Counted from the stretch's first letter, positions 11,266 to 31,200 are shown. The stretch is DNA of 64,000 bases from Candidatus Termititenax aidoneus (GCA_003864455.1 BGZN01000003.1:25484-89483); one strand, 5' to 3'. A program made the numbers and translations. Notes: generated from the sequence alone by a model not told the origin.

Positions 11266-11280
11266 TTCCGGCGTAAATTT

Positions 11281-12908: not shown

Positions 12909-12945
12909 CGACAAAAGGGACAGGCACGCATCAGGATTAAGCAGG

Positions 12946-13254: not shown

Positions 13255-13296
13255 GGTTGTTCGCTCCCTTCGCCAGCGTATCCGCAGGATACAGGC

Positions 13297-14022
13297 TCAG
13301 GGAGCGCAGAGAGCAATGGGGAGCGGAGAGCGTGGCAGGGCTGAATAATTTTTCAACGCCACATTTAAAAACAAACCCTCTAAATAAATTTGCGCCTGCG
13401 AGATAAGCGTGCCGCTGGGTTTGTGGCGCAACTGCAGTCCGTTTTCCGGTGTCCGCTCCAGCACAAAGCCGCGGCTGCCGCCGTGAAAAATATTGTGTTG
13501 ATTTTTCTCAAAAAAGAGCGTTTGTCCCAGCAGTCCCCAATGAAAATTAACTTTGTAAATATTACTCATGGTCAGAGGGTCGCGCTCCGCCGGACTAAAA
13601 ACATGTGGCGGTAATTCCAGGTCGCGCGGCCGTTGCAGCCTGCCGTCCAGTTTGGTTGGAAAAGTTTCTATTACTTTGTACCGGACATTGGGGTCGATTT
13701 TTTGCGCCAGACGCAGCAGGCCAAAATTGGCGGTGTATTCTATGATTATCCCGTCCGCCGTACCCAGCAAATAGCGCAGTATAGCCTGCCCGAAACCGCG
13801 CCGCAGATATTTGTCCTCCAGCCGCCAGAGCGGAATAATGAGCAGGTGATTATCGCTTTTGCGCAGGAAGATTTCTCCGGCTTTGCCGCCCTGGTAAATT
13901 ATCCGGTATTCATTGCCGTTGAGATAAGCGCTGTATTTTTGAAATTCCAGCCGCAGGTCGGCGTTAATAACAACGCGGCCGGCGGGCTGGCGTTTAAAAA
14001 CGGACACAAGTTTGGTCTGCAT
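13297..14022 (-). CDS. GNAT-family acetyltransferase-like protein, 241 aa
   Basis: GNAT motif A-like RRGFGQAILRYLL. The rest is unrecognised. Confidence 0.45.
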   Translation of the reverse strand: MQTKLVSVFKRQPAGRVVINADLRLEFQKYSAYLNGNEYRIIYQGGKAGEIFLRKSDNHLLIIPLWRLEDKYLRRGFGQAILRYLLGTADGIIIEYTANFGLLRLAQKIDPNVRYKVIETFPTKLDGRLQRPRDLELPPHVFSPAERDPLTMSNIYKVNFHWGLLGQTLFFEKNQHNIFHGGSRGFVLERTPENGLQLRHKPSGTLISQAQIYLEGLFLNVALKNYSALPRSPLPIALCAP

Positions 14023-14044
14023 AGTTGTTTATTTATCGGCGCTC

Positions 14045-14238
14045 CGGCGAAATTATTGCAAAATTTTTGGCCTGTGTTATAATGCCCTACCTTTAGGCTC
14101 TGGCGAGTTTGAGGGAATAAACATCGTTCTGTTTCTGTCTTGCGGTTGCCCGTTCGGGGTGGAAAGACAGGTTTAAAAGCGGAGCGAGAAGTAAAAACCG
14201 CCGGAAAATTCTTTTTTTCGGCAAAAAAGGAGTTCAAT
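14045..14238 (+). promoter_or_regulatory. rpsB-tsf promoter (TTGCAA -35 / extended -10 TGTTATAAT) and structured leader
   Basis: ttgcaaaatttttggcctgtgttataat read directly. The leader contains the stem ctgtctt...aagacag typical of S2-autoregulated rpsB leaders. Confidence 0.4.
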
Positions 14239-15929: not shown

Positions 15930-16004
15930 TCCCCGATCGTCTAATTGGTAGGACGACAGATTCTGGCTCTGTTAATCGAGGTTCGACTCCTTGTCGGGGA
16001 ACCA
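15930..16004 (+). tRNA. tRNA-Gln (anticodon CUG), 75 nt including the encoded CCA
   Basis: Hand-folded cloverleaf: acceptor TCCCCGA/TCGGGGA, D-stem GTCT/GGAC, anticodon stem ACAGA/TCTGT with loop TTCTGGC (anticodon CTG), T-stem CGAGG/CCTTG with loop TTCGACT, discriminator A, then CCA. Confidence 0.8.
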
Positions 16005-17555
16005 ATCCACCCTAGTATCCAACCCCGTTGAATTTAGTCTTTGACGATTCACGGAGTCAATCGGCCTTATCTTAATCCGTACTAAAGAGTCTTTGCTGTT
16101 TTCTTGAGGATAGAGCCGTATTTCGTCAATTATATAGCCTAGCAGTTTTTCTTTATCGATAAAACTTAATTCGTCATACATCTCGTAAAATATCCTAAGG
16201 GTGTCTCTTAGGTCATTATCGGTGGCTTTTTCCTGTTCTTTTAAGGCAATCAATTCATCGAAGTTCGAGCTTTCTAGGCCATATTTGGCAATTTCTTGCT
16301 CATACTTGCGGATAAGGTCGGCTAAATCGGGGTCATTTTTCGATAACTTTTGTAACTTATTTTCTACCCCTATTTTTTTGTTTAATATCCCTTGTTTCTG
16401 GTTGCGTAATTCTTGTATTTCTTTGTTCTGCTGCTTTCGTGCGTCAACTAAAACTTTTTCGAAGGCTAGATTATCCTTAAATAAATTCTTTAACTCCTCG
16501 GCTAGATGTTTTTCAATCAATTCGCTGTTAATTCTTATTCTTTTCTTTTTATTATCTTTAATATATGTATGCACATAATAATTGGTGTTGTTTTCCTTGT
16601 TATAGCCCATCTGCTTTTCAGAATCATTGTAAAACAACAAATCACTCAATATTCCCCTAGAAGCAGCAGACCTTCTTAATTCCGGTTTAGTATTGTCATT
16701 AAATATCTCTTGGCACAGGTTAAATACAGACTCGTTGATAATCTGACAAGACGGATTCCAATTAACAATTTTTCCGTCATGTCTGGCTTTACCAATGTAA
16801 TAGGGATTGTTTAGGACATTTTCCACATTATCCCTTTTGAAAGTTCTGTCTTTATTTTTTAAGTTTTGCTTATTCAAAAAATCAGCCACTTTTTTAGCAC
16901 TTTTTAACTCGATATATTTATCAAAAAGTAATTCAACAATAGGCCGTTCATCTTCATTGATTACAAGTTTTTTTCCGTTTTGGTCATATCCAAGGGGGAC
17001 TCGTCCGCCTCTAAATTGTCCTTCCTCAATCATGCGGTTCATACCGGTTTTAGTTCTTTCCGTGATAAGTTCACGCTCATATTCCGCAAAAGTTAAGATG
17101 ATATTCATCATCATTCGTCCTGCTGCTGTAGCAGTAGAAAAATCTTGTGTTATAGAAACAAGCGATATATCTTTGTACTTCAAATAATCGTTTATAAACT
17201 TGTAAAAATCACTAATGCTTCTGGTCAATCTATCAAGTTTATATATGACAATACAATTTATTTTACCTGCTTCAATATCTCTAACCAGTCGCTCATATTC
17301 GGGTCTATCTAAATTGCTCCCTGGCTTCCCTTTTTCGGCATATATTTCAGTCAGCACCCATCGTTGTTTATCGTCTGTGTCGTTGCGTAATGATATATGC
17401 TTTTTACACAGCTCGATCTGATTGTCCACAGAATCATGCTCTTTTAGTTGGCCGTATTTATCTTTGCCTTGTTTTTGGTCGCTAAATCTAGCATAAATTC
17501 CACAGCGTAATATTTTCTGTTCCTCGGTTTGAATAACAGCATTATTATTTTTCAT
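15972..17555 (-). CDS. Large serine recombinase (integrase) of the element; its last 11 codons are encoded by tRNA-Gln sequence
   Basis: N-terminal resolvase catalytic domain (YARFSDQKQ...; IYKLDRLTRS), recombinase domain and a coiled-coil-rich C-terminus; 527 aa. The stop lies at 15972-15974, inside the tRNA. Confidence 0.85.
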   Translation of the reverse strand: MKNNNAVIQTEEQKILRCGIYARFSDQKQGKDKYGQLKEHDSVDNQIELCKKHISLRNDTDDKQRWVLTEIYAEKGKPGSNLDRPEYERLVRDIEAGKINCIVIYKLDRLTRSISDFYKFINDYLKYKDISLVSITQDFSTATAAGRMMMNIILTFAEYERELITERTKTGMNRMIEEGQFRGGRVPLGYDQNGKKLVINEDERPIVELLFDKYIELKSAKKVADFLNKQNLKNKDRTFKRDNVENVLNNPYYIGKARHDGKIVNWNPSCQIINESVFNLCQEIFNDNTKPELRRSAASRGILSDLLFYNDSEKQMGYNKENNTNYYVHTYIKDNKKKRIRINSELIEKHLAEELKNLFKDNLAFEKVLVDARKQQNKEIQELRNQKQGILNKKIGVENKLQKLSKNDPDLADLIRKYEQEIAKYGLESSNFDELIALKEQEKATDNDLRDTLRIFYEMYDELSFIDKEKLLGYIIDEIRLYPQENSKDSLVRIKIRPIDSVNRQRLNSTGLDTRVDWFPDKESNLD

Positions 17556-17648
17556 AATTATAGATACGCTCCTTTATATAAAGATTATTATTTAATCAAA
17601 CTTGGGGCAGAGATGGGTAAAACCCTCTCTGCCAGTTTCACTAAATCT

Positions 17649-18347
17649 TTAGGCTTTCGCTACTAAAGATTCCTGCGGTTCTGCAACCGTTGAAGTTTGT
17701 TCAGCAGTTGCGGTCAAGGTGTTTTGTAAGTCTCTTAATTCTTTAAGAGCTTCCTCGACTTTGGCAATAGCTTCGCTTAATTGGTTTGGGTTTTTGATAT
17801 TCTTTACAACAATATCTTTTTCCCATCTGTTAAGCGAACGGCTGTTCCTGTTTTTGCAATATTTTTTATATATTGCTTCCAGACCTAGGCTGTCCACTTC
17901 AGCCTTTTTGTCGGGATTCTTAGATAGAAAATCACCCACCTTAGCATATTTCGAGACCAGTGCCTCGGACTTGCTTATTGCGGTGGAGACTTGGGCTTGA
18001 GTAATATCTTTATTATCAAGCACGGTCAAAACCGCTTTAGCAAATTCCGAGGGCATCAGATTCTTTCTCTGACAGTTCTCGGTAAGTTGGGTTAAGATGG
18101 TCTCCACACCATCTTTAGTTTCTGTAACAATCACAGGTACAGTTTCTAAATTGGCTAACTTAGCCGCCTCAAACCGCCTATGACCACAGATAACTTTATA
18201 GCCATCCCCCTCTTTTCTGGCACAGATGGGCTGCATAACCCCATAGGATTGGATGCTTGCTTTCAAGCTGTCCAATTTCCCCATGTCGGCACTCCGGATG
18301 TTCGTGCCGTTTGTTAATTGCTCCATAACCATATTGATCACTGCCAT
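17649..18347 (-). CDS. ParB-like nuclease domain protein
   Basis: ParB/Srx motif region MQPICARKEGDGYKVICGHRRFEAAKLANL. Confidence 0.65.
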   Translation of the reverse strand: MAVINMVMEQLTNGTNIRSADMGKLDSLKASIQSYGVMQPICARKEGDGYKVICGHRRFEAAKLANLETVPVIVTETKDGVETILTQLTENCQRKNLMPSEFAKAVLTVLDNKDITQAQVSTAISKSEALVSKYAKVGDFLSKNPDKKAEVDSLGLEAIYKKYCKNRNSRSLNRWEKDIVVKNIKNPNQLSEAIAKVEEALKELRDLQNTLTATAEQTSTVAEPQESLVAKA

Positions 18348-18671
18348 AATTCTTTACCTTTCTGTACAATCATGTACAATTTTATTTGCCAATTATCTGA
18401 CTTTATATCCAGAGTATATTTTTAAGAGATTGGGCTTATTACTCCACCTGCCTTTCAAGCATTTGTGCAGAAAAGTAATTTGCCGTACTAGACCTTGGCG
18501 AGCCTAGCTTAGTTAAATGTTTTCTTGCACAACAAATTTTGAAAGGGGCGTTTTACTTCCGGCTCAAGCTGTGGTTGGTTGTATGGCCGTTATCATTTAT
18601 TTCGCCCTGTTGTTAAACCACAGGTTTGGCAATACTATCAAACTCGCTATTTCTTGTCAACAGATATTTTT

Positions 18672-19358
18672 TCAATTCAACAAACCCTTAATTTTTTTCT
18701 GTGCCGTACCTGCACTTCTAATAAAATAATTTGTATCGCTTTTCATTTTGTTTTTTAGTTCTGCTAAATTTTCTTTCTCTGCTCCTCGGCTTAATCCGCA
18801 TTGTGCCAGTAAGTAACTTGCCGTAAGTGTGTTTGTCAGATTGTCATTTGTTTGTGGTTCTAAATTTTTTGCCAGAAAAACAATCGCTTTTCTAAAATAC
18901 TCCTCGGTATCAAGTCTGTTATCACGGGGCAGTTCTTTATCGGTTTTTTCAGAGCCTTTTTGTAACAGGTTATCAGTTTCATAGAGTTTATCGGGATAGA
19001 TATAATCGTCTTGCAAACCGGCAAAGTCAGCGTAGATCGATGTGTTGCACAAAGGGAATGAATGATAATAAGCCAGCCTGCCACCGGAGTTACAATTACG
19101 GAAGTAGGTCAGCAAAGCCCCTGTACTGCCTGTCATTATTTTACCGCCCATCTCTTTGATTTGCATGTAAGAGCCAAAGAATACATTGTTTTTTATGTTG
19201 TGCTGTCGGCAGTAGATACTCAATAAGGCTTGGTTTAATACGCTGTAATTCTGTTCACTGGCCATATTGCGGTATAGAAATCCTTGATTGAGAAAATCCA
19301 AACCGTTATTTTCTACATATCCTAAAACATAGTCATTTATAATATTTTCAACACGCAT
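18672..19358 (-). CDS. ArdC-N-like (ssDNA-binding, DUF1738-like) protein
   Basis: Architecture and motifs resemble the N-terminal domain of the neighbouring ArdC-like protein (…YRNMASEQNYSVLNQALL…FFGSYMQIKEMGGKI). A weak call. Confidence 0.4.
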   Translation of the reverse strand: MRVENIINDYVLGYVENNGLDFLNQGFLYRNMASEQNYSVLNQALLSIYCRQHNIKNNVFFGSYMQIKEMGGKIMTGSTGALLTYFRNCNSGGRLAYYHSFPLCNTSIYADFAGLQDDYIYPDKLYETDNLLQKGSEKTDKELPRDNRLDTEEYFRKAIVFLAKNLEPQTNDNLTNTLTASYLLAQCGLSRGAEKENLAELKNKMKSDTNYFIRSAGTAQKKIKGLLN

Positions 19359-19596
19359 AAGATTACCCCTTTTTATTTGATGTAAAAGTTTCGTAACAAA
19401 ACTATTGAAAAATTAGCCCTCGCTTAAAGACACCACCCACCTTATTTTTGAATACGGTTTTTTCTAAAATGTGGAGCGTTATTTTTAAGAAAGGACTAAT
19501 TATTTATTCACTAAGATTTAGCGTTTGATTTTTTCTTGTAAGATTTTCCGCAGAAAATCCATCTCTTTTTGGCTTAGATTAGACTTGAGCAATAAT

Positions 19597-20484
19597 CTAT
19601 CTTTGTTCATGGCACACTTCCTTTCCTGCACCCTCATTTAGCTTTCGTCCAAAAATATAATCTGCCGCCTTGCTTGCCTTACTGCTAGCAGACACAAGGG
19701 CTTCTTTTTGATTTTTTAGAAAGTTAGCCCAGTTATTGATATAGGCTTGTGTATTGGTTTTGTTTATAGGCAAGCCTAACTCTTGCATAATAAAACTGCT
19801 AGCCATTTCCGCTATCAATTCCTCTTGGCTGTATGAATTTCTATCTTTATTAAGGCTTTCCAGAGGTCTATTTAATCTTTTTGCATTTCCCGTCCAGTGA
19901 GACAATTCGTGAAAAGTAACACCGTAGTATTCGTTAGTGTTTATAAATGTTTCGGGTTTTTGTATATAAATAGTGTCCTCACTTGGTATATAGTAATTGC
20001 CGGAAACAGATACAATAAGATTAGGGTTGTTTGCTTTTATAACTCCCTCGGCTTTTTCGATAGGGTTAAAATTATTGTGCTGTTTTTCGGGTAACTTCAT
20101 ATTGGTTTGCTCTATGTTAAAAACATTGTAATAGCGTAATATGGGTATCTCTTTTACTTCTTTTAGACCGTTTTTATTTGTTACTTCTTTTTCCGTGATT
20201 GTCCAGTAGATAACCGGCACGGATTTTTCACCGCAATTTACGCTACCGCCTGCGTTTTTAATCTGTAAGAAAGTACCCCAGATATTATGTTTATAGCTTT
20301 TTTTGTTAGCGATATAAGTTAAATATAAATAATTTATACCTCTATAAGTTTTATTAGATTGTAGATTTTTAGGCAGCTCCGCAGCACAGGGGTTTTGCCA
20401 CGGTATAACACCTAACTCCAATCCTTTAATCAGTTCCTCTACTATTGCCTGTTGCTTCTCTTGTGCGATTGTCATGGTCAGCAC
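19597..20484 (-). CDS. ArdC-like antirestriction protein (ssDNA-binding N-domain + zincin-like metalloprotease C-domain)
   Basis: N-terminal …IPWQNP…YRGINYLYL…TFLQIKNAGGSV. C-terminal HExxH zincin motif FHELSHWTGN. Confidence 0.7.
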   Translation of the reverse strand: MLTMTIAQEKQQAIVEELIKGLELGVIPWQNPCAAELPKNLQSNKTYRGINYLYLTYIANKKSYKHNIWGTFLQIKNAGGSVNCGEKSVPVIYWTITEKEVTNKNGLKEVKEIPILRYYNVFNIEQTNMKLPEKQHNNFNPIEKAEGVIKANNPNLIVSVSGNYYIPSEDTIYIQKPETFINTNEYYGVTFHELSHWTGNAKRLNRPLESLNKDRNSYSQEELIAEMASSFIMQELGLPINKTNTQAYINNWANFLKNQKEALVSASSKASKAADYIFGRKLNEGAGKEVCHEQR

Positions 20485-20586
20485 CGCCTTTCATTGGTTA
20501 GTTATCTGCCAACGACAGAGGACAACTCCGAAGTGCGGTGCAAATATTGAAAGGCGGTTATTGAAGACTATGCGGAAGTTTAGTAA

Positions 20587-20826
20587 CTAAAGATTAGCGG
20601 TGTGGTTACTTTCATCTTTAATATTTATATTATAAGTATGATGGTCTTTAGTTTTTACGGTTACTCGCCATAATGTTGCGTCTTTTAATTTCTTTCGCCA
20701 CCAGATTTTTTCAACAATTTCTTTGTTTCCGACAGTTTCAACTATCAGATTTTCTATGTTGTTTCGTAACTTTATGTTTGTTAATTCATTGTCTATATCT
20801 ATTATTTTTCCCATTTCACCAGCCAT
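20587..20826 (-). CDS. Hypothetical protein, 79 aa
   Basis: ORF with an upstream RBS inside the AT-rich element. No recognised domain. Confidence 0.4.
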   Translation of the reverse strand: MAGEMGKIIDIDNELTNIKLRNNIENLIVETVGNKEIVEKIWWRKKLKDATLWRVTVKTKDHHTYNINIKDESNHTANL

Positions 20827-20870
20827 ATATACGCTCCTAAAATATTTTTACCTTCTTTAGAGACTAAAGA

Positions 20871-21293
20871 TTAGTTATTTATTTTTTTTGTTTCTCTGAC
20901 TTTTTCTAATTTTCTTTTAGCGGCATACGCTTGCTTCAAAAATGAGACCGCTTCTTTGTTGGTCGGCTCTAGTTTGACTACTTCCGTAAAATCTTTTATT
21001 GCCTTATCAAAGTTTTTTGTTTGAGCATACGCACACCCTCGAAAGAGATAAGCCGGTGCAACGCTTTTGCCGAATTTAATCGCCTTAGTAAAATCCGCTA
21101 TGGCCTTGCTCCAATTCTTTAGCTCAAAATAAGCAAGCCCACGGCCAAAATATGCCGTTGAGTGATCCGGCTTTAATTTAATGTATTCAGAAAAACTTTC
21201 GATTGCCTTATCCCAGTTTTCTTTTTCAAGGTACATCTTCCCGGTACTTAGGTACGCTTTTTTAGCTTGCCCTTTTGTCGATTTTTTAATCAT
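20871..21293 (-). CDS. TPR-repeat protein, 140 aa
   Basis: Three TPR-like units (W-LG-Y-A-F-P pattern: AYFGRGLAYFELKNWSKAIADFTKAIKF…). Confidence 0.6.
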   Translation of the reverse strand: MIKKSTKGQAKKAYLSTGKMYLEKENWDKAIESFSEYIKLKPDHSTAYFGRGLAYFELKNWSKAIADFTKAIKFGKSVAPAYLFRGCAYAQTKNFDKAIKDFTEVVKLEPTNKEAVSFLKQAYAAKRKLEKVRETKKINN

Positions 21294-21697
21294 CGATATG
21301 CTTCAGGGTCATATCGTATTGGCTCAGTTTCAAAACCTTTAATGATTTCCATTTGCATATTCTCATTTATTTTTACAAGTCCCCATTTACCATTTTTCAT
21401 TAAGGAAAATTTTCCGGTTGTTTGGTATTCACTAAACCAAATGTTATCATACTCAAAATTAACAATAATTTTTCCTTGTTTACTGATAACTCCCCACTTA
21501 CCGTTATATATTGCAGGAAATAAACCATTGTGATACTCATAAATTCTGACTTTGTCAAAAATACGTTCGCTAATTTGCTTTCCATATTCATCAAAAACTT
21601 TCCATTTAGTACTACTTATTCCCACGGCAGTTAGCCCTTTGTATTCTTGAATTTGAGTTCCCTTATCGTACCTTATATTGAATTTTTCACTACTCAT
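21290..21697 (-). CDS. WG-repeat protein, 135 aa
   Basis: Repeated (N/K)GKWG(V/L)(I/V) motifs (YNGKWGVISKQGKIIV; KNGKWGLVKINEN). Confidence 0.6.
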   Translation of the reverse strand: MSSEKFNIRYDKGTQIQEYKGLTAVGISSTKWKVFDEYGKQISERIFDKVRIYEYHNGLFPAIYNGKWGVISKQGKIIVNFEYDNIWFSEYQTTGKFSLMKNGKWGLVKINENMQMEIIKGFETEPIRYDPEAYR

Positions 21698-21720
21698 ACT
21701 TCACTTCTCCCATAATTTCT

Positions 21721-21948
21721 TTAAAGATTGTCCAAATTCTCAATTTCAATTTTGCCTTTGTGTATAGCTTTATGGCATGGCTGACATACGGAAACAATAT
21801 TGTTTGGATGGGATAGGCCGCCTAAGCCACGAGGAATATAATGATGCCCTGCACAGTTACCTTGTCCGCAAATTTCACATTTGTTTCCGGCTAATATTCT
21901 GCCTTCTCTTTGTGCTTTTATATCAATATAAGTTCTTTTTTTTGACAT
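21721..21948 (-). CDS. HNH endonuclease, 75 aa
   Basis: CEICGQGNCAGHHYIPRGLGGLSHPNNIVSVCQPCHKAIH is a classic HNH (CxxC…HH…N…CxxCH). Confidence 0.7.
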   Translation of the reverse strand: MSKKRTYIDIKAQREGRILAGNKCEICGQGNCAGHHYIPRGLGGLSHPNNIVSVCQPCHKAIHKGKIEIENLDNL

Positions 21949-21966
21949 AAATACTCTTGCACCTAA

Positions 21967-22188
21967 TCAAAATGAAGATAACGTCACATCGTCATTAGTA
22001 ATTTCTACCTCTCTATCGCCATAAGTAATAATACATTCAGTATCGTCAATGCTTACCATTCCATCCTTTTCAAAAATTATTTTAAAAATTTCCACCTTGC
22101 CGTTGGAATGTTTAACGACAATTTTATCATCATAGACATTGAGAACCTCATCACCTTTCTTTAATATTTCCAAGGATATTTTTTTCAT
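21967..22188 (-). CDS. Hypothetical protein, 73 aa
   Basis: ORF in the element's minus-strand gene string. No recognised domain. Confidence 0.35.
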   Translation of the reverse strand: MKKISLEILKKGDEVLNVYDDKIVVKHSNGKVEIFKIIFEKDGMVSIDDTECIITYGDREVEITNDDVTLSSF

Positions 22189-22206
22189 GTTGTCTCCTTT
22201 AAGTTA

Positions 22207-22419
22207 TTATTTCCCTTGCCCTGGCAAGAGATTGCGAAAAATCTGTTCGATTACTTTGCCGCCATACACACCTGTTCTGACTCTCATATCGGATTTGTGT
22301 GTTTTTTTATAGTCTTTTAGTACTTTTTTGACTTTTGGCATCACACGCTTAACATCTTTTGTTTTACCCATTATATTAACTGTGGCCGCACTTACCTCAT
22401 CATTGCTCATACAACTCAT
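22207..22419 (-). CDS. Hypothetical basic protein, 70 aa
   Basis: ORF in the element. Lys-rich. No recognised domain. Confidence 0.35.
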   Translation of the reverse strand: MSCMSNDEVSAATVNIMGKTKDVKRVMPKVKKVLKDYKKTHKSDMRVRTGVYGGKVIEQIFRNLLPGQGK

Positions 22420-22581
22420 CCTCTCTTTATGTTGTTTTAGTCAACAGCTCTGCCAGTTAAACTACAAACTCAAAACCATTATCGTTTTATACAGTTTAGT
22501 TAGAATTATACATTTGTATAGCAATAAAAACAATATCCATTCAAAGATAAAATTAAATGTCTCTTATTTAAGGAGGCATTT

Positions 22582-22971
22582 ATGGAAAATAAAACCACAG
22601 TAGAAAAAAGGTTAAAAACGCTGATCTCAACCAAGCTTCAAGAAATCAGAGAAGCGGCAGGCGGTCAATCGCTTGAGAAAATGGCCGAACAATTAAATCT
22701 AAATTATACTGTCCTGTTTCATATTTATTCGGGCAAATATTTGCCCAGATTGACAACCCTTACCCAAATTTTAGATTTTTACAATCTGCCGATAGAGATA
22801 TTTTTCAAAGATTTAACAAACAAAGATAAGGCCACACTTGCCAAAAATGCAAGTCATGCCACGCTAATTAGCGATTTTGATAAACTCGACAAACCAATGC
22901 AGGCCTCTATCCTAAAAATAGTCCGCAAATTAAATCTAAAAGAGAAAAAGCACAGGTATAGCGGTAAATAA
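22582..22971 (+). CDS. XRE-family HTH regulator of the element
   Basis: HTH-like LQEIREAAGGQSLEKMAEQLNLNYTVLFHIYSGKYLP. RBS aaggagg. It is the only plus-strand gene in the element's interior. Confidence 0.6.
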   Translation: MENKTTVEKRLKTLISTKLQEIREAAGGQSLEKMAEQLNLNYTVLFHIYSGKYLPRLTTLTQILDFYNLPIEIFFKDLTNKDKATLAKNASHATLISDFDKLDKPMQASILKIVRKLNLKEKKHRYSGK

Positions 22972-23047
22972 TTCTAAAAAATCTGTAACGGTTAAGTATT
23001 AAAGTCGAAACAGCATAAGTTTAGTGACTAAAGATTAGCCGTTTTTT

Positions 23048-24004
23048 CTATTTCTTTGACTTTCTTTTTTCGGCTTTTGCCTGTTCTAAATATTCATGTG
23101 CCTGTTTGTTATTGGGATTTAGCTCCACTGTTTTAGCAAAATCTTCAATGGCTTTGTCAAAATCGCCTTTACTGGCATACGCACAACCCCGATAAAAATG
23201 TGCCTCATCATAATCCGGTTCTAAGTTTATTGCCTTTGTATAACTTCTTATTGCCTTAATCCAATCACCTTTTTGAAAATAAGCATATCCTCGATATGAA
23301 TATGCTTGGATAGCAAGTCCTTGTCTCTCACGACTAGGATCAGATTTAATTGCCTCGGTATAATCCTCTATGGCCTTATCCCAATTTTCCTGAGCAGCAT
23401 AGGCACGTCCTCTATGCAGATATGTCAATTCATCTCCCGAATATAATTCAAGTGCCTTGTCGTAGTCTTTAATAGCCTTGTCAATATTTCCCTTTTCAAA
23501 ATACGCAATACCTCGATTGCAATAAACCATGTAATCATCATGCGTATAATTTTTATTCATTTTAATTCTTTTAGTGTAATCCTTTATGGCGTTATCATAA
23601 TCTTCCATATCACTATACGCATTTCCTCGCATGAGATATGCAATTTCGTCATTGCTGTCTAGTTTTGTTGCTTTGGTATAGTCCTCTATGGCTTGATTAA
23701 GGTTGCCTTTTTTGGCATATGCTACGCCTCTATTACAATATGCTATTCCATAATTTTTATCCAGCTTAATTGCTTCTGTATAACTTTTAATCGCATTGTC
23801 CCAATCATTTTCTTCACTATAAGCACACCCTTTATTATAAAACTCTACCGCTTGTTCGTCAGTCGATATACTCCTATCCTTAATGCCTAGTCTTTTTTTG
23901 AGATTCTTATAATACCTTTCTGGATTTTCGCAATAATCCCTATAATTAGGATCATCAAATTCTTTGTATTTATCTATAATTTCTTTTAATTCCGATTCGC
24001 TCAT
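23048..24004 (-). CDS. TPR-repeat protein (about 8 TPR units), ~318 aa
   Basis: Repeated AYxxRGxAYxxxGxxDKAIxDYTxAIKL units. Start chosen at MSESELKE (24004) rather than the ORF-track 24064. Confidence 0.65.
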   Translation of the reverse strand: MSESELKEIIDKYKEFDDPNYRDYCENPERYYKNLKKRLGIKDRSISTDEQAVEFYNKGCAYSEENDWDNAIKSYTEAIKLDKNYGIAYCNRGVAYAKKGNLNQAIEDYTKATKLDSNDEIAYLMRGNAYSDMEDYDNAIKDYTKRIKMNKNYTHDDYMVYCNRGIAYFEKGNIDKAIKDYDKALELYSGDELTYLHRGRAYAAQENWDKAIEDYTEAIKSDPSRERQGLAIQAYSYRGYAYFQKGDWIKAIRSYTKAINLEPDYDEAHFYRGCAYASKGDFDKAIEDFAKTVELNPNNKQAHEYLEQAKAEKRKSKK

Positions 24005-24005
24005 A

Positions 24006-24431
24006 TTAGTTATTCCCCTTAGGTTTACGCTGCCAAAAAGCAAGCCGAGGCAAAAACAGTACAAATCTAAGCAACCAAGATTCTGGCCAAGGATAATTAG
24101 AAAATGGCTTTTTGTTTTTTATTCTTTTTTCTTCATCGTCTTGGCTATATATTTTGGTAATGGACAGAAAAAACATATTAGGAGTAAGTTTTCTTATTAA
24201 CCCATTAGAGGCAGAAACTGCACCGCAACAGAAATCAAGGAACGGTTTTTTATCTGCTGCGTCTAATTCTTTAGTGGATAATATCAGCCAACCTTGAATC
24301 TTTAATATTGTGCCTGCTTGATGCATAGAATCTGCATCTGTTTTTTGCGGTGTATATGTAATGTCAGACAAGCTGTCCCTTATTTGTCCCTCATCTAATA
24401 ACTCCGACCCAGTTTTTTTATTTTTCGCCAT
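24006..24431 (-). CDS. Hypothetical protein, 141 aa
   Basis: ORF in the element. No recognised domain. Confidence 0.35.
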   Translation of the reverse strand: MAKNKKTGSELLDEGQIRDSLSDITYTPQKTDADSMHQAGTILKIQGWLILSTKELDAADKKPFLDFCCGAVSASNGLIRKLTPNMFFLSITKIYSQDDEEKRIKNKKPFSNYPWPESWLLRFVLFLPRLAFWQRKPKGNN

Positions 24432-24661
24432 ATATGCTCCTAAAAATTAAGTATATCATATCCTATTGCTTAACAATAATATATATTATTTGTTCTGCAA
24501 TAAACTAAAATGCCAGTATCAAAATCAGGCAAAATTTTGTGTTTGGACTGCTAAAATATTTATGACAAATTACCATACGGAATTTCGTCACGAAACTTTA
24601 TTATTCAAGGCAGACTCATTGTATATTCTTTGATAATAGTTACCCCCATTTACAGATTATT

Positions 24662-25294
24662 TTAGTTAAACCAGTCTAATTCTGTTTTGCCTTTGTAACC
24701 CTTTTCCCAGATAAACCATGCGTAACAAATGGTGCTATTGGTAGGGAAAGTAACAAAATCACCATTTCTGGCACAATTCAGACGTGAGCTTGAGACCCAG
24801 ATTTTCTTGGGCGGATTTTCAGTAAAAATCTTTTTGCGTGTTTTGCTTTCCAGATACCTAATGGGCAAAAACAACGCTAGCTTGCGGTTACAATCAAGAA
24901 TTTCTAAGGCTTTCTTCATAAATTCATTAGCATATTTATACGGTGGATTGGTAATAATATCGCCATGCCATTTCGATATGTAATCCTGTTTGTCTGTAGG
25001 ACTTGCTAAAAAATCATAATGCTTGCCGTACCCGTAATTATATTTATCAGTAGCCAACTTTAGTATGCCCTGCTTTTTTAACACTTTCGCCATGTGTCCT
25101 TGACCACAGGCACATTCCCATACGTCAGAGAAGTTATCTAGTTCTAAAAGTAATTCGGTTGCCTTTGGCTCTGTGGCGTAAAAGTCATGCATCTCACGGT
25201 CATGCAAGGCAAGATTCCGTGAGCCAATGCTCATATGTACGCTGTGTTTATTGCCTGTCCAATCTTTTGGCTTTTGATTTTTCTTGCCAGTCAT
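24662..25294 (-). CDS. Orphan N6-adenine DNA methyltransferase, 210 aa
   Basis: SAM-binding motif I (DVWECACGQGHM) followed by the catalytic motif IV DIITNPPY. No adjacent restriction endonuclease gene. Confidence 0.75.
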   Translation of the reverse strand: MTGKKNQKPKDWTGNKHSVHMSIGSRNLALHDREMHDFYATEPKATELLLELDNFSDVWECACGQGHMAKVLKKQGILKLATDKYNYGYGKHYDFLASPTDKQDYISKWHGDIITNPPYKYANEFMKKALEILDCNRKLALFLPIRYLESKTRKKIFTENPPKKIWVSSSRLNCARNGDFVTFPTNSTICYAWFIWEKGYKGKTELDWFN

Positions 25295-25335
25295 CTATAC
25301 TTAATAAAAGTTTCGCAACTAAACTTCTTTATTAT

Positions 25336-26574
25336 TCAAGGCGGCCTAATGGCATACTCTTTGAGGTCAACCCCTATCATAGAGCTTGTATAATCTATCC
25401 AGTCTATCAATCCGGCAAAAGCAGACATAACAATTTCATATTTATTTATCAACTCATGCCTGAGTTTTGTATAAAGATTATCAGGCAAAAAATCGGCTAC
25501 TTTATTAAACAGGGCATATATGCGTTTTCTTTCCCTGCACTTAGCCGAAGTGTCATTTTTATCGGAAAACCTATCATTAAGATACTGACTTATATTTAGT
25601 GTGTTAATATCTAAAAGCAAGTTTATTTCTTTCCATGATAAATGTTTACTTAACCAATCCCAAGTAAAAGTATTATTCCACAGACTAGGGTAGGGTTTGG
25701 CCTTGACTGGCAAAAAGTCTTTTAATTCTTTAGTGTAAACTTTCGTAAATAAACTTTGTAAGTTCCGTTTGGAGAATAAACTTTCTGCTGTAAACTTTGA
25801 GCCGTGAATTTTGCCAAAACTCTTTATCCGTTTACTGCCTTTGATTCTCAACTCTGCCCTTAATAGATTTATATCGCCAATATCAAAGTCCTGTTTTTCT
25901 CTTAATTCTTTGGCTTTATCATAAACACATAACAAATAACCCCCTTTTTTACTTCTAATATATAAAGAGCCTTTGAAATACCGGATTTGATTAGCATGAT
26001 GTTTTAAGTTTTCCTCAAAGAATACATAATAATCAGGCGGTCGGTTAGGAAGCTCTACATTAAGGGCTATATCTATTCTTGATATTTTTATATCGCTTAA
26101 ATCGACAACAACCCCGTTCTCTGCTAGAAAATCCTTAAACATTTCCCAAAATTTCCGGTATTGCTCATTAGTAGGCAGGGCTATATTATTACTGTTAAAA
26201 CATTTAGGGATATTTACAGTAATAAAAAGATTGCCGCTCCCTTGGCTTAAATTAAAGTGTCCGTCATTAAGCCAAAAATCCTTACACCGCAAAAAACCAG
26301 TACGCCCATCGTCATATAAAAGAGGGATAACATTATTTTTATCTGCCGTATTGCATTTATACTTTGTTAAGCAGGACTGTTTGATCCTGTACTTCTCGTG
26401 CGGCAGATAAAAAACTACGCTATCTGTGCCTACTACATAATCAAGGTTGGCTAAATTTATAAAGTTAGACTGTTGCCAGGCAAGGTTATCAAGATCAGTA
26501 AACATAATAAAATCATCATCAAATAAATCTGCAATCAAAGTCGCCTTATTATTAGCCAACACTGCTATCCTCAA
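25336..26574 (-). CDS. Rep_trans-like rolling-circle replication initiator / relaxase-like nickase, 412 aa
   Basis: Size and motifs (…LLCVYDKAKELREK… candidate catalytic Tyr in a YDK context) resemble the Rep_trans family found on ICE/IME and RCR plasmids. A moderate call. Confidence 0.45.
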   Translation of the reverse strand: MRIAVLANNKATLIADLFDDDFIMFTDLDNLAWQQSNFINLANLDYVVGTDSVVFYLPHEKYRIKQSCLTKYKCNTADKNNVIPLLYDDGRTGFLRCKDFWLNDGHFNLSQGSGNLFITVNIPKCFNSNNIALPTNEQYRKFWEMFKDFLAENGVVVDLSDIKISRIDIALNVELPNRPPDYYVFFEENLKHHANQIRYFKGSLYIRSKKGGYLLCVYDKAKELREKQDFDIGDINLLRAELRIKGSKRIKSFGKIHGSKFTAESLFSKRNLQSLFTKVYTKELKDFLPVKAKPYPSLWNNTFTWDWLSKHLSWKEINLLLDINTLNISQYLNDRFSDKNDTSAKCRERKRIYALFNKVADFLPDNLYTKLRHELINKYEIVMSAFAGLIDWIDYTSSMIGVDLKEYAIRPP

Positions 26575-26611
26575 TTTTCTTTTATAAATTGTCTGTTATG
26601 CGTTCTTGCCG

Positions 26612-26761
26612 TCATTGTTTTTTGTCCTCATTATTATTTGCCATACTTAATCTCATAGCCCGTCTGCGTTTGGCTTCTTTTATTACATTGCGAGCAATAA
26701 TTTCATTTACGGCCGCTGTCCTTTCCTCTAGGGTTGCATTCATTATCCTTAATAGAAACAT
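26612..26761 (-). CDS. Small basic protein, 49 aa (MFLLRIMNATLEERTAAVNEIIARNVIKEAKRRRAMRLSMANNNEDKKQ); candidate RHH/Xis-like regulator; below the ORF-track cutoff
   Basis: RBS GGGAGGTG 8 nt before the ATG. Immediately upstream of the Rep_trans-like gene, and divergent from the XRE gene across a palindromic operator. Confidence 0.4.
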   Translation of the reverse strand: MFLLRIMNATLEERTAAVNEIIARNVIKEAKRRRAMRLSMANNNEDKKQ

Positions 26762-26782
26762 TACAGAATCACCTCCCGTATT

Positions 26783-26812
26783 AAGCGTATGCTAGAATTA
26801 TAGCATACGCTT
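26783..26812. promoter_or_regulatory. Perfect 12-bp inverted repeat AAGCGTATGCTA-gaatta-TAGCATACGCTT in the divergent promoter region
   Basis: Read directly. Lies between the small RHH-like gene (minus) and the XRE-family gene (plus). Confidence 0.6.
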
Positions 26813-26838
26813 GAAAAAGGTCAACGGCTAGTATATAA

Positions 26839-27420
26839 TTGTGTTCTATGGCGATAAAACAGATAAACCCCGAACAGGCTCAACATTTGAAAAACCTGTT
26901 AAAACAAAAACAGATTAGCCTTGAAAAAATGGGTAAGGCTTTAGGTGTTAGCTTTCAGCTTGTTCATCAATACACTACAGGCCGGTGCAATCCATCGCCA
27001 GAAACAATGGCGGAAATGGCAAAGGTCTTAAGTGTTCCTCTTTGTTATATGTATATTGATTGCACGCAAAAAGCCTTAGAAGTTATTAGCAATTATTTTC
27101 AACAGCATGGCTTTTTCGTCAAAAAAGAGGTAGCAAAAACCTATTCTTGCGACCTGCTTTGCTTAAGCCCCATGCAAAACATTATCATAGCGGCAAATGT
27201 TAAAAAAACTTCGACAAAGAAATTTTCGGACTCAGCATTAAATATTGATTTTATAGAGCAATCTCTTAGAAAGACATACAATATAAAAAACTGTGTTTTT
27301 CTAAAGGTTGAAATAACTCCCGAAAAAGTACACATTAACTATGATAAGAAGTTAGAACATTTGCCCAGTTTACCAAAGTTACTTAAAGCTCTCGACAGTT
27401 TGTCGATTGTCTGGCCTTAG
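26839..27420 (+). CDS. XRE-family HTH regulator with a C-terminal extension, 193 aa
   Basis: HTH-like LKQKQISLEKMGKALGVSFQLVHQYTTGRCNPSPETMAEMAKVL. Confidence 0.55.
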   Translation: MCSMAIKQINPEQAQHLKNLLKQKQISLEKMGKALGVSFQLVHQYTTGRCNPSPETMAEMAKVLSVPLCYMYIDCTQKALEVISNYFQQHGFFVKKEVAKTYSCDLLCLSPMQNIIIAANVKKTSTKKFSDSALNIDFIEQSLRKTYNIKNCVFLKVEITPEKVHINYDKKLEHLPSLPKLLKALDSLSIVWP

Positions 27421-27573
27421 ATTTCTAACTACTAATTTTTTTCTATGACCATAAGCCCACATATTATAATGTTTAATACACAACCCTTTTCCGTGGTGCG
27501 GCTCATTACAACCTAATATAGTACAAGTCTTAATATATGGGTTTGGGAATAGGCCTACCCAAATAACGCTCAT
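27379..27573 (-). CDS. Cys/His-rich small ORF, 64 aa, at the right end of the element; in frame with the recombinase across the inferred attP
   Basis: CTILGCNEPHHGKGLCIKHY motif. The minus-strand frame is open from the element boundary (27618) to this ATG and matches the recombinase frame relative to the 10-bp core. Confidence 0.4.
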   Translation of the reverse strand: MSVIWVGLFPNPYIKTCTILGCNEPHHGKGLCIKHYNMWAYGHRKKLVVRNLRPDNRQTVESFK

Positions 27574-27631
27574 GGTATAATTTGTCCTTGCTCCATTCTT
27601 TGTATTGTAGGGTGGAATGGGGAACCAAAGT

Positions 27632-27730
27632 TACTAAAAGTCCTCCTTGCACGTCGCTACGCTTGTTGGTCTCACTTAACTTCGGGCTTACGCCCTTGTT
27701 AAGCTCGACGCGGGTAACCAAAGTGTTATA
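27632..27730 (-). repeat. Single diverged copy of the 104-bp repeat unit also found in tandem at 37032-37289
   Basis: Minus-strand read …GTCGAGCTTAACAAG[GGCGTAAGCCCG]AAGTTAAGTGAGACCAACAAGCGTAGCGACGTG… versus repeat unit …GTCGAGCTTAACAAG[CGAAGCG]AAGTTAAGCGAGACCCACAAGCACGCGAAGCGGGCGACGTG…. Confidence 0.6.
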
Positions 27731-27899
27731 CTTTAGGCTATGCGAAAGACGAAGCCTAAAAAACTCAAAGCGCGCGACGAAATTTTGCTGCGTCATATCA
27801 CTACCGGCAAGATCGGCTGCGGACCGCACAAAAATAAAATAAAATACAGCCGCCAACGCAGCAAACTCGAAACTAAAAATACCGCCGTGGAGGAACAAA

Positions 27900-28217
27900 A
27901 TGCCAAAACTTAAATTTACGCAGAACAGCAAAACTTACGAAGCGTGCGGCACGGATTTTCAAATACGCGTTTGGCAGGAATTGCGCAAGATCCCCAGAGG
28001 GCAAGTTATTACTTACGCGGAATTGGCGCGGCGCGCAGGCCGCCCGCGCTCCGCGCGGGCCGCGGCGAACGCCTGCGGCGCCAATCCGCTGCCGGTCATA
28101 GTTCCCTGTCACCGCGTTATCCGTGGCGACGGAGGTTTGGGCGGATACTCAGGAGTCGGCGGCGTGCGGAGAAAACGCGAATTGCTGCGCAAAGAGGGTT
28201 ATATTTTACTGGCTTAA
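27900..28217 (+). CDS. MGMT-family protein (O6-alkylguanine-DNA alkyltransferase DNA-binding domain only, YbaZ-like), 105 aa
   Basis: Active-site motif PCHRVI and an HTH (TYAELARRAG) are present. The N-terminal Ada/Ogt domain is absent. Confidence 0.8.
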   Translation: MPKLKFTQNSKTYEACGTDFQIRVWQELRKIPRGQVITYAELARRAGRPRSARAAANACGANPLPVIVPCHRVIRGDGGLGGYSGVGGVRRKRELLRKEGYILLA

Positions 28218-31200
28218 TTTTTTCTCGAGGCGTTTGATGTAATGTTCAGACCGGATTTCACAAAATATTTGCAAGGCTTTATCTAATATTTTTATTCTAT
28301 CGAAATAATTTTCATCGCGGCCTGTGGAATTGAACAACGAAGCGTAGTGGTACATAGATTTGCCCAGTTCATATTTACGGCCGATGAGTTTGCAGTGTTT
28401 TATAGACTGCAAAAATAACTTTTTAGCTTTGTCTTTTTTGTTGACCAGAACATTGTATCTCGCCGCCGCACGCAAAGCTCCGCCGTAATGTGTCGGCCAG
28501 TTTTTAGTCTCCCGTAAAGCTCTTTGGCTGGCTGCCTGAATTTGCCGCAGGAAATTTTCGCTGTCCGGAATTTTAGCCGTGTCGTTTTTATATTTTCGAT
28601 AATAAGCGATCAGGATTTCCGCATGATCATTCAAAATATTGATCGAATACTCTTTATTGAAATTCGCGCCTTCCGCGTTGTAATGCTCGATCGCTTCGGT
28701 GATGTAGCCTTTGGCTTTTTCCAGCTCGCCTTTTTCTAGGTAAAGCATGGACAGCTCGGTCAGCACATTGCAAAGCATTTGCTGTTCATCGCGTTTGTAC
28801 AATTCACGGGCATAACCTAAAGCGGTCAGGCCGGATTTTTCCGCTTGTTCCAGACTGCCTGTTTCAGCCCGAAGACTCAATTGCATCAAATTAGCGGAAG
28901 CCAGGCCGTAAGTGTCATTAGCCCTGGTTACGCGCACAAAGTATTTTTTGTTTAATTCATCGGCTGCGGGGTATTTGGCCAGCGCGTAATACACATAAGA
29001 CATGGAGGTTTGCACGCGGGCGATATGCTCGTTGTCGCCGGCTATGGAAAAATATTTAAGGCTTTTTTCCAGATAATGCTGGGCGCGGCGAAAATCCGCT
29101 TTTAGCCAGAGATAATTATAGGCCGAAAACTGATAAAGCTGCCCTAGACCAAAAGCGTTTTTGTTTTTCTCATTTTTTCCATACAGAATCTCAGCTTTTT
29201 CAAAGTATTTTTGCGCGGAATTAAACTTGCCGAGATTGAGCATGATAAGGCCTAGGCCGCAGTAACTTAAAGCTTCTTCACTGGATTTAGGCAGAAAATG
29301 TCTGGCGATGCCGTTCATTTTCAAAATACAATAGGTTAGTTTTAACCGATCGGTCGTGGAATAATTCCAGGCCAGCGTATTATAGAACCAGATTTTTTGC
29401 GCCGCGCGTTCCTTATCTGCCCGGGATTGTTCTGACGGAAAACTGGCCATAACGTCCAGCAACTGCAGGGCTAAATAGCCTTTCGTAACTCTTTCGGGAA
29501 AACTTTCCTCCAAAATTTTTAAACCATTCAGGCCGTAATATTCACAACTGCTGTAATTGGCTTGTTTATAATACGCGGCGCATAAAAAACTGTAAGCTCT
29601 GGCTTTATCCGGCGGTGAATTTAAAAAAGGCATAATTTTGTTGAGCAGATTTTCCGCTGACGCGACCTGTCCGACCACCAAATACAATTCGGCTAATTTT
29701 AAACCGGACTGGATATGTCCTTCTGAACCTTCCTGCGTGCTGGCGACTACAGACTCCAGCACATTGATCGCTTCTGCATAGGCAAAACCTTGAGCATGCT
29801 TCAGCGCGGCAGTATAACCGTGTTTCCAGGATTGATCCAGGATTACGGCGGATTGACTGTTTTGTGCGTGATAATAAAGGTCTTCGGCCTGCTCAGTTTT
29901 CTCTTCTGTGGTCAAACGGCCGTCCAGAAAATTTAAAGCGGCGGCATGTACAACGCTGCGGATTTTTTCCGGCAGATCATTCAAAAGCACCTGCCGGATA
30001 TAGTCATGGACAAAAACGATTTCATTTTGGTCGTTCAAGCGCACCAACTGAGCCTCCACAGCGTTGCGGATCTTAGTGGCGTTTAATTTCGGACATAGCC
30101 TGCTAAGGTCTTCAACAGTCAGGCTTTGCGCGCCGACCGCCGCGGCATAAATTAGCAAAGCTTTAGTCTCATTATCTAAAACATTCAGTTTGTCATGTAT
30201 CGAATCTTTGGTCAGCGGCGCAATAGAGATTCTTTCAGCCCGTTCTTCCGAGAAAGTCCATTGATTGTTTTTTAAGTAAAGAACCGGCGGGTCTATGGCG
30301 TTCTTTTCTGTGTTGGCGCTTTTTAGTTGTTTGACAATCTCCAGCGCATAGAAAGGATTGCCGCCGCTTTTTTTCTGCACCCAGTTGGCCAGGGCGGAAA
30401 TAGAGCTGTTCCTTTGCTGCAGCTCATTGACGATCATTTTTTCCGTGTCCCGTAAATTAAAATTTTGCAGAGCCAATTCTTTGGCGCTGGCCAGTAAATT
30501 TTCCTTGAGAAAATCAAAATTGACATGCAGCAAAGGCTGGATTTCTTTGTAGGTGCAGACCAGCAGCAGATAAGAACTGGCTAACTGTTCGCGGGATAAT
30601 TTTTCCAAAACTTCCTTGGAATATGAGTCGAGCCATTGTAAATCATTCAGCACGATGACCATGCCCTGTTCAGCCGCGGCCAGACAGAGCAAAAACCGGA
30701 TAAATATATTGCAGAATTTAAGCTGTTCGCTGGAAGAGGTGTCCATTTTGACTGAAAAAGACAAATTTTCGTCATTAAGGTTTAGATCGAGCAGTTCGCC
30801 TAATTGCGGAGCAAAACTCTGAATTTCTTTTTCATAATCTATGCCGTAGTTTTCCATCTGTTTTTTTAGCTCGGCTGAAATCGCTGCTTTTTTGTCGTGA
30901 GGATAACTTCTAAAACGTTTGATATACGTGATCAGTATTTGTTTGAAAGCCAGATAAGGCTGTTGCCGGTCGCCTAGTTCGAATCCGCCTTCCATAAACG
31001 GCTTGAGATTTGCTTTGGCAATAGGTTTCAACTGGCCGGCCAGAGCGGTTTTGCCAATGCCGGATTCGCCGCTGATTATATATACGTTGCCTTGTTTTTG
31101 CAGCGCGCTGTGGAAAGCGTTTTTTAATTGTTTTACTTCAGCAAGGCGTCCGACAAAATTTTCTCCGGAAGGAAAAGCGCTAAGGTTAGACGAGACACCC

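Follow-up and report, generated by a model that had tools for sequence, protein, structure and literature searches.

In a 64,000-nucleotide stretch of the genome of Candidatus Termititenax aidoneus (GCA_003864455.1 BGZN01000003.1:25484-89483; hereafter the window, with positions counted from its first base), the end of a tRNA-Gln gene is occupied by 11.6 kb of foreign DNA, apparently inserted by a large serine recombinase that it encodes itself. It is probable that this segment is a serine-integrase element with the attachment (att) sites described below.

The element is delimited by a 10-bp direct repeat, GGGGAACCAA, found at 15996-16005 and 27619-27628, the left copy of which consists of the last bases of the tRNA gene plus one. 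No further copy exists on either strand of the window, where 0.05 would be expected, and two copies occurred in 0 of 100 shuffles. Just inside each copy lies one arm of a 9-bp inverted repeat, namely TCCACCCTA on the left (16006-16014) and, on the right, its reverse complement TAGGGTGGA (27608-27616), the latter separated from the right direct repeat by AT (27617-27618). Neither arm recurs in the window (0.15 expected). According to a repeat finder, an imperfect form of the inverted repeat reaches 21 nt (16002-16022 versus 27600-27620, 81% complementary). The joint chance of the 10-mer recurrence and the adjacent 9-bp inverted repeat is estimated at ~1e-6 (0.05 x 4 offsets x 4^-9). The GC content is 0.357 in 16006-27618 as opposed to 0.479 in the remainder of the window, all other 11.6-kb stretches of which have at least 0.454, and the shift is confined to ~200 bp around each repeat. 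An initial annotation of this DNA had reported the direct repeat, the inverted arms with their AT spacer and the drop in GC content between the two sites; the coordinates proved exact and the motifs unique in the 64 kb. In a scan against Rfam, the tRNA was the sole match.

Joining 27569-27628 to 16006-16065 reconstructs attP, with the junction TTGTATTGTAGGGTGGAATGGGGAACCAATCCACCCTAGTATCCAA; the deduced attB junction is GACTCCTTGTCGGGGAACCAAAGTTACTAAAAGTCC. The reconstructed attP is an imperfect palindrome in which 17 of 25 positions are symmetric about an axis between G15999 and A16000 (= G27622/A27623). Its layout is TAGGGTGGA-a-TGG-gg/aa-CCA-a-TCCACCCTA, the slash marking the axis, with more matches outside, and its symmetry score, taken at any centre, was reached by 1 of 2000 shuffles. 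The two-base offset of the right arm is explained by a palindrome that has its centre within the direct repeat and does not consist of terminal repeats abutting a duplication. Large serine recombinases need a non-palindromic central dinucleotide for polarity, and the GA at the axis of attP is the predicted crossover dinucleotide; since 10 bp are identical in both partners, we infer the crossover position from the symmetry.

Following the established behaviour of large serine recombinases, the excised element would be an 11,623-bp circle (16006-27628), on which recombinase dimers would bind the near-palindromic attP of ~50 bp. The same recombinase would bind attB, which spans the 3' strand of the tRNA acceptor stem. 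In the synapse of attP and attB, all four strands would be cut at the central dinucleotide (predicted G15999-A16000), and subunit rotation and strand rejoining would generate attL, composed of tRNA, core, and P', and attR, composed of P, core, and B'. Crossover at GA would swap the last five tRNA bases (AACCA) for identical bases of the element, and since the 10 bp of the direct repeat are common to attP and the tRNA end, the tRNA would be rebuilt unchanged. Any present-day activity is putative.

The recombinase said in the initial annotation to abut attL is encoded by a 527-aa open reading frame (ORF) that in fact overlaps the left repeat. Judged by its domains and its predicted fold, it is a genuine large serine recombinase with intact catalytic residues, for which catalysis of attP x attB recombination is predicted. 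Pfam recognizes a Resolvase domain (E 4.9e-30) and a Recombinase domain (PF07508, E 1.5e-13, residues 201-287), while sequence matches in the PDB include the integrases of TP901-1, SPbeta, Bxb1, and phiC31 (E 9.8e-17 for the TP901-1 catalytic domain). In a 51-sequence alignment that includes the recombinase, R23, S25, R84, D108, R109, and R112 are invariant. Its AlphaFold (AF2) model has a mean predicted local distance difference test score (pLDDT) of 70, with values of 86-97 over residues 191-290, and comprises a catalytic domain with helix E, a confident recombinase domain, a beta-ribbon (308-343), and long low-confidence helices (344-463). With this model, Foldseek returned alignments of ~500 columns to full-length serine integrases bound to att DNA, headed by SPbeta (9dxh, E 2e-16) and including phiC31, Bxb1, and LI (4kis); the values for SPbeta, Bxb1, and phiC31 range from 2e-16 to 1e-11. 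The protein is 100% identical to the NCBI entry from Ca. Termititenax aidoneus. Among 5.8 billion proteins, the next-best match has 35% identity over 65% of the length, and none of the matches listed exceeds 36% identity at comparable coverage. A search of viral contigs yielded no relatives of the recombinase, and separate exact look-ups of its sequence and of that of EF-Ts had no match.

Related loci provide a comparative view of the same boundaries. A scan of one genome per species for the 3'-terminal 25-mer of this tRNA retrieved two Margulisiibacteriota metagenome-assembled genomes (loci L001 and L002, the latter JAIRZV010000069.1), and relatives of EF-Ts, which is encoded nearby in the window, led to five more usable loci (L003, L004, L006, L007, and L008); at L005, the contig ends inside the tRNA. 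The 3' half of tRNA-Gln is identical in L001, L002, and L004. In all of the usable loci except L002, homology to the window ends at 16002-16004 and is resumed at 27733-27761 where the contig is long enough, and the 11.6-kb element is absent in 6/6. Together with the symmetry of attP and the genuine large serine recombinase, these breaks in homology bear out the attL/attR arrangement proposed in the initial annotation. What follows the tRNA differs from locus to locus, namely a Bro-N gene (L001), a Fic gene (L003), unrelated DNA (L004), DUF6973 genes (L006), a HipA/HIRAN/RhuM island (L007), or, as the minimal state, 30 bp and then a conserved 60-aa ORF (L008); this makes the tRNA-Gln 3' end a genus-wide hotspot.

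The closest approach to an empty site is found in L003, where positions 4652-4880 match the empty site deduced from the window (15960-16005 joined to 27629-27735) at 128 of 148 positions with three gaps. As the B' side of attR is thus homologous to DNA that directly follows tRNA-Gln in L003, the DNA to the right of attR is lineage DNA. Two other candidates were set aside. L001 was rejected as an empty site, as it has a 928-bp insert (encoding the Bro-N protein) and no counterpart of window positions 27629-27732. The similarity of L008 to the B' flank of the window is ambiguous and was left unused, the automatic alignment pairing the L008 tRNA end with an older relic copy, described below, and not with attR.

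To judge from its sequence, L002 is an independent, decayed relative of the element at the same tRNA. There, tRNA-Gln is followed by ATCCACCCT and then by what remains of a related recombinase gene, namely residues ~134-527, with 42-93% identity and distributed over different reading frames, the catalytic N-terminus being missing; the cargo is different and includes a DEAD/ResIII helicase-like ORF. The first 9 nt after the tRNA are the same in L002 and the window, amid adjoining DNA that is only ~70% identical, which suggests that the inner arm is under constraint.

Features of the element and its borders in the window (positions counted from its first base; attL and attR given with a nominal extent)
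Feature	Position	Strand	Remarks
tRNA-Gln (anticodon CTG)	15930..16004	+	integration target, intact after integration; ARAGORN; Rfam tRNA 58.6 bits
Large serine recombinase, 527 aa	15972..17555	-	ORF crosses attL; last 11 codons antisense to tRNA
attL (B arm, core, P' arm)	15975..16024	+	predicted crossover G15999/A16000; 50-bp extent nominal
Left direct repeat GGGGAACCAA	15996..16005	+	core identity common to attB and attP
Inner P' arm TCCACCCTA	16006..16014	+	same in decayed L002 relative
ParB/Spo0J-type N-terminal domain protein	17649..18347	-	Pfam ParB_N E 2.6e-16; PHROG ParB-like; TIGR00180
Non-coding block with TGTACA repeats, upstream of ParB-like gene	18360..18560		conserved with L002
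ArdC N-terminal-like protein (weak match)	18672..19358	-	Pfam ArdcN E 7.6e-7; PHROG anti-restriction E 1.8e-5
ArdC-type anti-restriction protein (ArdC-N and zincin metallopeptidase)	19597..20484	-	Pfam MPTase-PolyVal E 8.9e-31, ArdcN E 2.3e-27
Small cargo gene block	20587..22419	-	orf79, TPR, WG-repeat, HNH, orf73, orf70; Pfam
TPR protein in small cargo block	20871-21293	-	
WG-repeat protein in small cargo block	21290-21697	-	
Small HNH protein in cargo block	21721-21948	-	
Helix-turn-helix (HTH) regulator, Xre-type	22582..22971	+	Pfam HTH_3 E 5.1e-5
TPR protein (23048-24064) and 141-aa ORF (24006-24431)	23048..24431	-	Pfam TPR E 2.9e-63
Orphan DNA methyltransferase, NPPY motif	24662..25294	-	PHROG 799 E 4.2e-55; DIITNPPY in translation
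Rolling-circle initiator (Rep), 412 aa, Phage_CRI/Rep_trans clan	25336..26574	-	Pfam
Back-to-back promoter-like sites, Rep (-) / HTH gene (+)	26797..26839		11/12 consensus positions each; consensus match only
Xre/RstR-like HTH regulator, divergent from Rep	26839..27420	+	Pfam HTH_3 E 1.9e-8; PHROG regulator/repressor
64-aa zinc-finger ORF	27379..27573	-	PHROG 5351 (HNH endonuclease N-terminal module) E 1.6e-7
attR (P arm, core, B' arm)	27598..27647	+	predicted crossover G27622/A27623; extent nominal
Inner P arm TAGGGTGGA	27608..27616	+	reverse complement of TCCACCCTA
Right direct repeat GGGGAACCAA	27619..27628	+	
Host-side relic, outside element	27629..27727	+	older-insertion remnant and degenerate tRNA 3' copy (CCTCCTTG ... 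GCGGGTAACCA)

Several observations weigh against a functional serine-integrase element with these sites. The deduced attB has no clear dyad symmetry at the attP centre. Neither an exact empty site (tRNA joined to 27629 onward) nor a circular attP junction was found in any collection searched. For the empty site, the near-equivalent in L003, the closest unoccupied relative, has a 17-nt indel at the junction, and in L001 and L004 the tRNA is followed by other DNA; the circular junction, also put forward in the initial annotation as a check, found no counterpart at all in these collections. The element encodes no recombination directionality factor that could be identified. Its recombinase has no cysteines after residue 290, lacks the four canonical zinc-ribbon cysteines and does not match PF13408, so its ribbon may not bind zinc, although the model shows a beta-ribbon and coiled-coil-like helices in the 300-527 region. 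Rep has no PDB relative by sequence or profile, its assignment being based on weak profile matches. Finally, the element family could be decaying, since the sole relative is a pseudogenised remnant.

As regards the collections themselves, viral contigs contain neither the attL nor the attR junction pattern, and the tRNA 3' 25-mer had no match in the metagenome collection. The latter evidently lacks relevant termite-gut samples, because L004, a contig from the Joint Genome Institute, has the exact 25-mer. The single metagenome junction match (L009) was discarded as a chance hit that lies inside a coding region and has no tRNA.

These points bear above all on the possibility that the element, having arrived as described, has lost the ability to excise, its repeats being scars. 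Such a history is conceivable, although we consider it unlikely. It would agree with the occurrence of the element in a single genome, with the pseudogenised state of the L002 relative, whose catalytic N-terminus is lost, with the two missing junctions and with a site that holds other relics, including P'-like scars without recombinase genes in L003 and L006. On the other hand, the ORF of the recombinase is undamaged and retains every invariant catalytic residue, the 10-bp repeats show no mismatch and the arms match well, the remaining ORFs of the element are likewise open, and the strong difference in GC content argues for a recent arrival.

The gene content points to a probably non-autonomous, plasmid-like element, either IME-like (integrative mobilizable element, IME) or satellite-type. 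In keeping with an IME, an integration module of its own with flanking att sites is present. Rep, under the control of the divergent Xre-type regulator, would replicate or process the excised circle, while the two ArdC-like proteins, the ParB-like protein and the orphan methyltransferase would form an entry and anti-restriction set. Genes for ArdC, ParB, and methyltransferases are typical of conjugative leading regions and of DNA that enters by conjugation. Among the element ORFs scanned in each of Pfam, PHROGs, and NCBIfam, none matched a capsid or tail protein, a terminase, Zot, a type IV secretion component, or a coupling protein; without virion genes and without genes for type IV secretion or coupling, the element would have to be transferred with the aid of a helper. 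No origin of transfer (oriT) was identified, nor was a canonical relaxase or a helper element. At the nucleotide level, no plasmid or phage record resembles the element, and PADLOC detected no defence system among the ten cargo ORFs scanned. We infer both the role of Rep and the transfer route from sequence.

Rep matches Phage_CRI with 26.1 bits (cut-off 21.7) and Rep_trans with 27.6 bits, below the cut-off of 29.6. Rep is the sole candidate for a mobilisation protein, and Rep_trans, to which its match is sub-threshold, is the family of the MobT relaxases. Beyond the same protein in NCBI, no word-sharing homologue of Rep was found, and 90 remote relatives were recovered among 1.84 billion representatives. 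When 40 of these were scanned, 24 matched Phage_CRI and 8 matched Rep_trans, and in the alignment with relatives, Y182, Y218, K220, and E241 are invariant. The surroundings of three remote relatives gave no information, two of them lying on contigs of 2 kb and the third in a chromosomal region made up of gene fragments. The regulator divergent from Rep also matches the RstR-like family of NCBIfam (E 7.8e-7), with a score under the cut-off of that family.

Upstream of the ParB-like gene, the non-coding block at 18360-18560 is conserved with L002 3130-3290 (70% identity by blastn), where its orientation relative to the recombinase is inverted; it is a candidate cis-acting site, i.e., an origin, oriT, or ParB site. 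Other repeats were noted among the cargo genes. A 38-nt motif (24596-24633 / 25327-25364) and a 21-nt motif (19383-19403 / 25305-25325) lie just downstream of genes on the minus strand (methyltransferase, Rep, ArdC) and could be terminators or origin-related. The two TPR genes (20871-21293 and 23048-24064) have common repeat units and near-identical 3' flanks (20856-20905 / 23020-23069, 92% over 26 nt), a sign of duplication within the element.

The Rep protein and its neighbour also invite a different interpretation, namely that of an integrated filamentous-phage-like element or satellite that is not mobilised by conjugation and has a layout like that of CTXphi/RS1. Phage_CRI is the best match of Rep, as it is of 24/40 relatives, the divergent HTH gene has its weak match to the RstR family, and the phiRSM integrase is likewise a serine recombinase, albeit a small one (PMC7192596). 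Nevertheless, no Zot/pI morphogenesis ATPase was found with Pfam or PHROGs, the recombinase is large and not small, and no small hydrophobic coat-protein candidate is present on the coding strand: hydrophobic ORFs occur only on the non-coding plus strand, nearly all of them overlapping minus-strand genes, and none is convincing. An IME is favoured over a filamentous-phage satellite because the set of ArdC, ParB, and methyltransferase genes is typical of conjugative entry, and the filamentous interpretation appears improbable.

With the direct repeat outside and the inverted repeat inside, the layout formally resembles a transposon whose 9-bp repeats are terminal inverted repeats and whose 10-bp repeat is a target-site duplication. 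This origin is very unlikely, as the Pfam scan of the element ORFs revealed no transposase, the 2-bp offset of the right arm is in keeping with a palindrome whose centre lies within the repeat, not with inverted repeats abutting a duplication, and a serine integrase is encoded at the end of the element. Moreover, the related element at the identical tRNA position in L002 indicates site-specific recombination. That the repeats are a coincidence of their shortness, nothing else speaking for it, in a low-GC island with other or diffuse boundaries is effectively refuted by the uniqueness of both motifs at the two boundaries, their estimated joint chance, the symmetry of attP, and the agreement of the boundaries with the GC shift and the synteny breaks. 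A tyrosine-integrase island of the Islander type was also considered and rejected; no ORF of the element has a Phage_integrase match, and the far end repeats no more than 10 bp.

For the serine-integrase element preferred here, the position of attP raises a further possibility. On the excised circle, the recombinase ORF has attP within its 3' end; according to a frame analysis, the 64-aa zinc-finger ORF would lie directly downstream and in frame. The frame stays open through attP into 27573-27379, and a 599-aa protein is predicted. The circle would then give rise to the 599-aa fusion, or at least to co-transcription of the recombinase and the zinc-finger ORF, whereas in the chromosome the ORF stops at 527 aa, with its tail antisense to the tRNA and the zinc-finger gene separated from the recombinase promoter. 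Integration would in this way remodel the C-terminus of the recombinase and uncouple the downstream zinc-finger gene. If true, this would be a built-in switch between an integrating form (or an accessory or directionality factor) and a resident form. A comparable effect exists in Mx8, whose tyrosine-integrase gene, intP, contains attP, and we know of no described case of such remodelling for a large serine recombinase. The proposal is highly doubtful, because an in-frame open arrangement alone has an estimated chance of ~0.15 of arising by accident.

The host flank is not pristine, since the hotspot also holds an older relic. In the window, the relic copy spans 27642-27724 and is degenerate (GGGTAACCA), with its core at 27712-27720, and it is split by a hairpin repeat resembling repetitive extragenic palindromic (REP) elements. 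L003, L006, and L007 each have a second partial tRNA 3' copy, (A)CTCCTTGTCGGGGAACCA, ~75-160 bp after the full gene (relics, in which a short spacer precedes the copy, at L003 4695-4858, L006 10939-11041, and L007 10936-11033), and the architecture of L003 is the same as that of the window. Our reading of these partial copies is that they mark an older, separate integration with a longer identity segment; as it is common to several Termititenax species, the relic would predate their divergence. The longer tRNA 3' copy near 27712, like those in L003, L006, and L007, is assigned to this older, separate event.

Further features of the site and its surroundings were observed. The full tRNA genes of L003, L006, and L007 end in GGGGAAC/T, with CCA not encoded. 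P'-like sequences, ATCTACCCTGG (L003 4850-4870) and AACCACCCCAT (L006 11033-11052), stand directly after the GGGGAACCA of the relic copies, have no recombinase gene nearby and may be scars of earlier serine-integrase elements. Within the element, a 22-nt stretch at 27372-27393 (ACCAAAGTTACTTAAAGCTCTC) matches the attR core and host flank (27624-27645) at 19/22 positions; it extends over the ends of two convergent ORFs and may be due to chance. The REP-like hairpin is dispersed, ~55-60 nt long (GGTCTC.CTTAAC ... GTTAAG.TCGAC) and not in Rfam. Its copies lie at 27652-27711 (+) and 37079-37226 (two in tandem, -) in the window and at L003 4796-4850, L006 4164-4217, and L007 5766-5809, and the differences between window and L003 in the paired stem preserve complementarity. 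Elsewhere in the window, a 1015-aa STAND-type NTPase (AAA_16 and TPR; 28206-31253, -) is encoded between an MGMT gene and thrC, a position that holds nothing in L001 and a 239-aa ORF in L003; PADLOC gave no match for the STAND protein. Another variable region is the ~5.8 kb between rho and rpsB (8200-14051), which is missing in L001 and L003 and contains genes for potassium uptake (TrkA/TrkH) together with a PIN-domain ORF and others that have no annotation.

Compared with known systems, this is an ordinary kind of mobile element, with the mechanism of any serine integrase and a target that is rare for the enzyme class. The same order of recombinase domains and the same predicted fold are found in phiC31, Bxb1, TP901-1, A118/LI, SPbeta SprA, SCCmec Ccr, and Tn4451 TnpX. 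The corresponding elements likewise have the recombinase gene beside an att site, a short core identity, and an attP that is near-palindromic around the central dinucleotide. In contrast to them, the element described here targets the 3' end of a tRNA, which is rebuilt, and not a protein-coding gene, it lacks the zinc-ribbon cysteines, and its host is an uncultured Margulisiibacteriota ectosymbiont of the termite gut. The papers found to mention Termititenax treat other subjects, and no description of mobile elements in this candidate phylum was found.

Among mobilizable elements, the IMEs reviewed by Guedon et al. (2017, PMC5704250) are alike in their small size, the combination of an integration module with a rolling-circle initiator, the lack of conjugation machinery, and the very short direct repeats. 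Those with serine recombinases insert inside genes and disrupt them, and all IMEs listed at tRNA 3' ends use tyrosine recombinases (PMC5704250). The present element differs from these IMEs in that no canonical relaxase, oriT, or helper was identified. The phage phiRSM integrates into a tRNA-Ser gene and has an inovirus-type rolling-circle Rep. Inoviruses of this type share with the element the use of a serine recombinase as site-specific integrase (PMC7192596). However, the phiRSM enzyme is a small, resolvase-like recombinase without recombinase and zinc-ribbon domains, and the phage has virion genes, whereas the element described here has a large serine recombinase and none.

The tycheposons of Prochlorococcus, 27 of 937 of which use a large serine recombinase (bioRxiv 10.1101/2020.12.28.424599), offer another parallel. 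They too are small, cargo-carrying elements with site-specific integrases, many having their own replication genes; these are polymerases, primases, and helicases instead of a rolling-circle Rep, and the likeness is one of description only. Margulisiibacteriota are the phylum sister to Cyanobacteria.

The closest precedent is provided by the serine-integrase islands found with TIGER/Islander (Mageeney et al. 2020, PMC7192596), which combine the same class of integrase with a tRNA target. In that survey of 2168 genomes, t(m)RNA targets accounted for 44.5% of tyrosine-integrase elements and for 14/297 (4.9%) of serine-integrase elements, in agreement with the statement of the initial annotation that serine-recombinase elements are less common at such sites. 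Large serine recombinases were described there as "not known for targeting tRNA genes", and their use of t(m)RNA genes as previously unreported and in need of experimental proof (PMC7192596). None of the closest database relatives of the recombinase is near enough to suggest kinship with the 14 islands, which were not themselves compared. Elements of large serine recombinases in tRNA genes have thus already been predicted, and this one, which leaves the understanding of how such elements work unchanged, is found in a little-studied phylum. It is a well-delimited serine-integrase element whose attP, attB, attL, and attR can be deduced. The marked divergence of the recombinase (at most 36% identity among the matches listed) and the short predicted att pair make it a possible orthogonal integrase for genome engineering. 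Relative to the TIGER/Islander cases, the symmetry of attP and the second, independent occupant of the same tRNA add support, and make the element a clean example of this rare pairing of a large serine recombinase with a tRNA gene.

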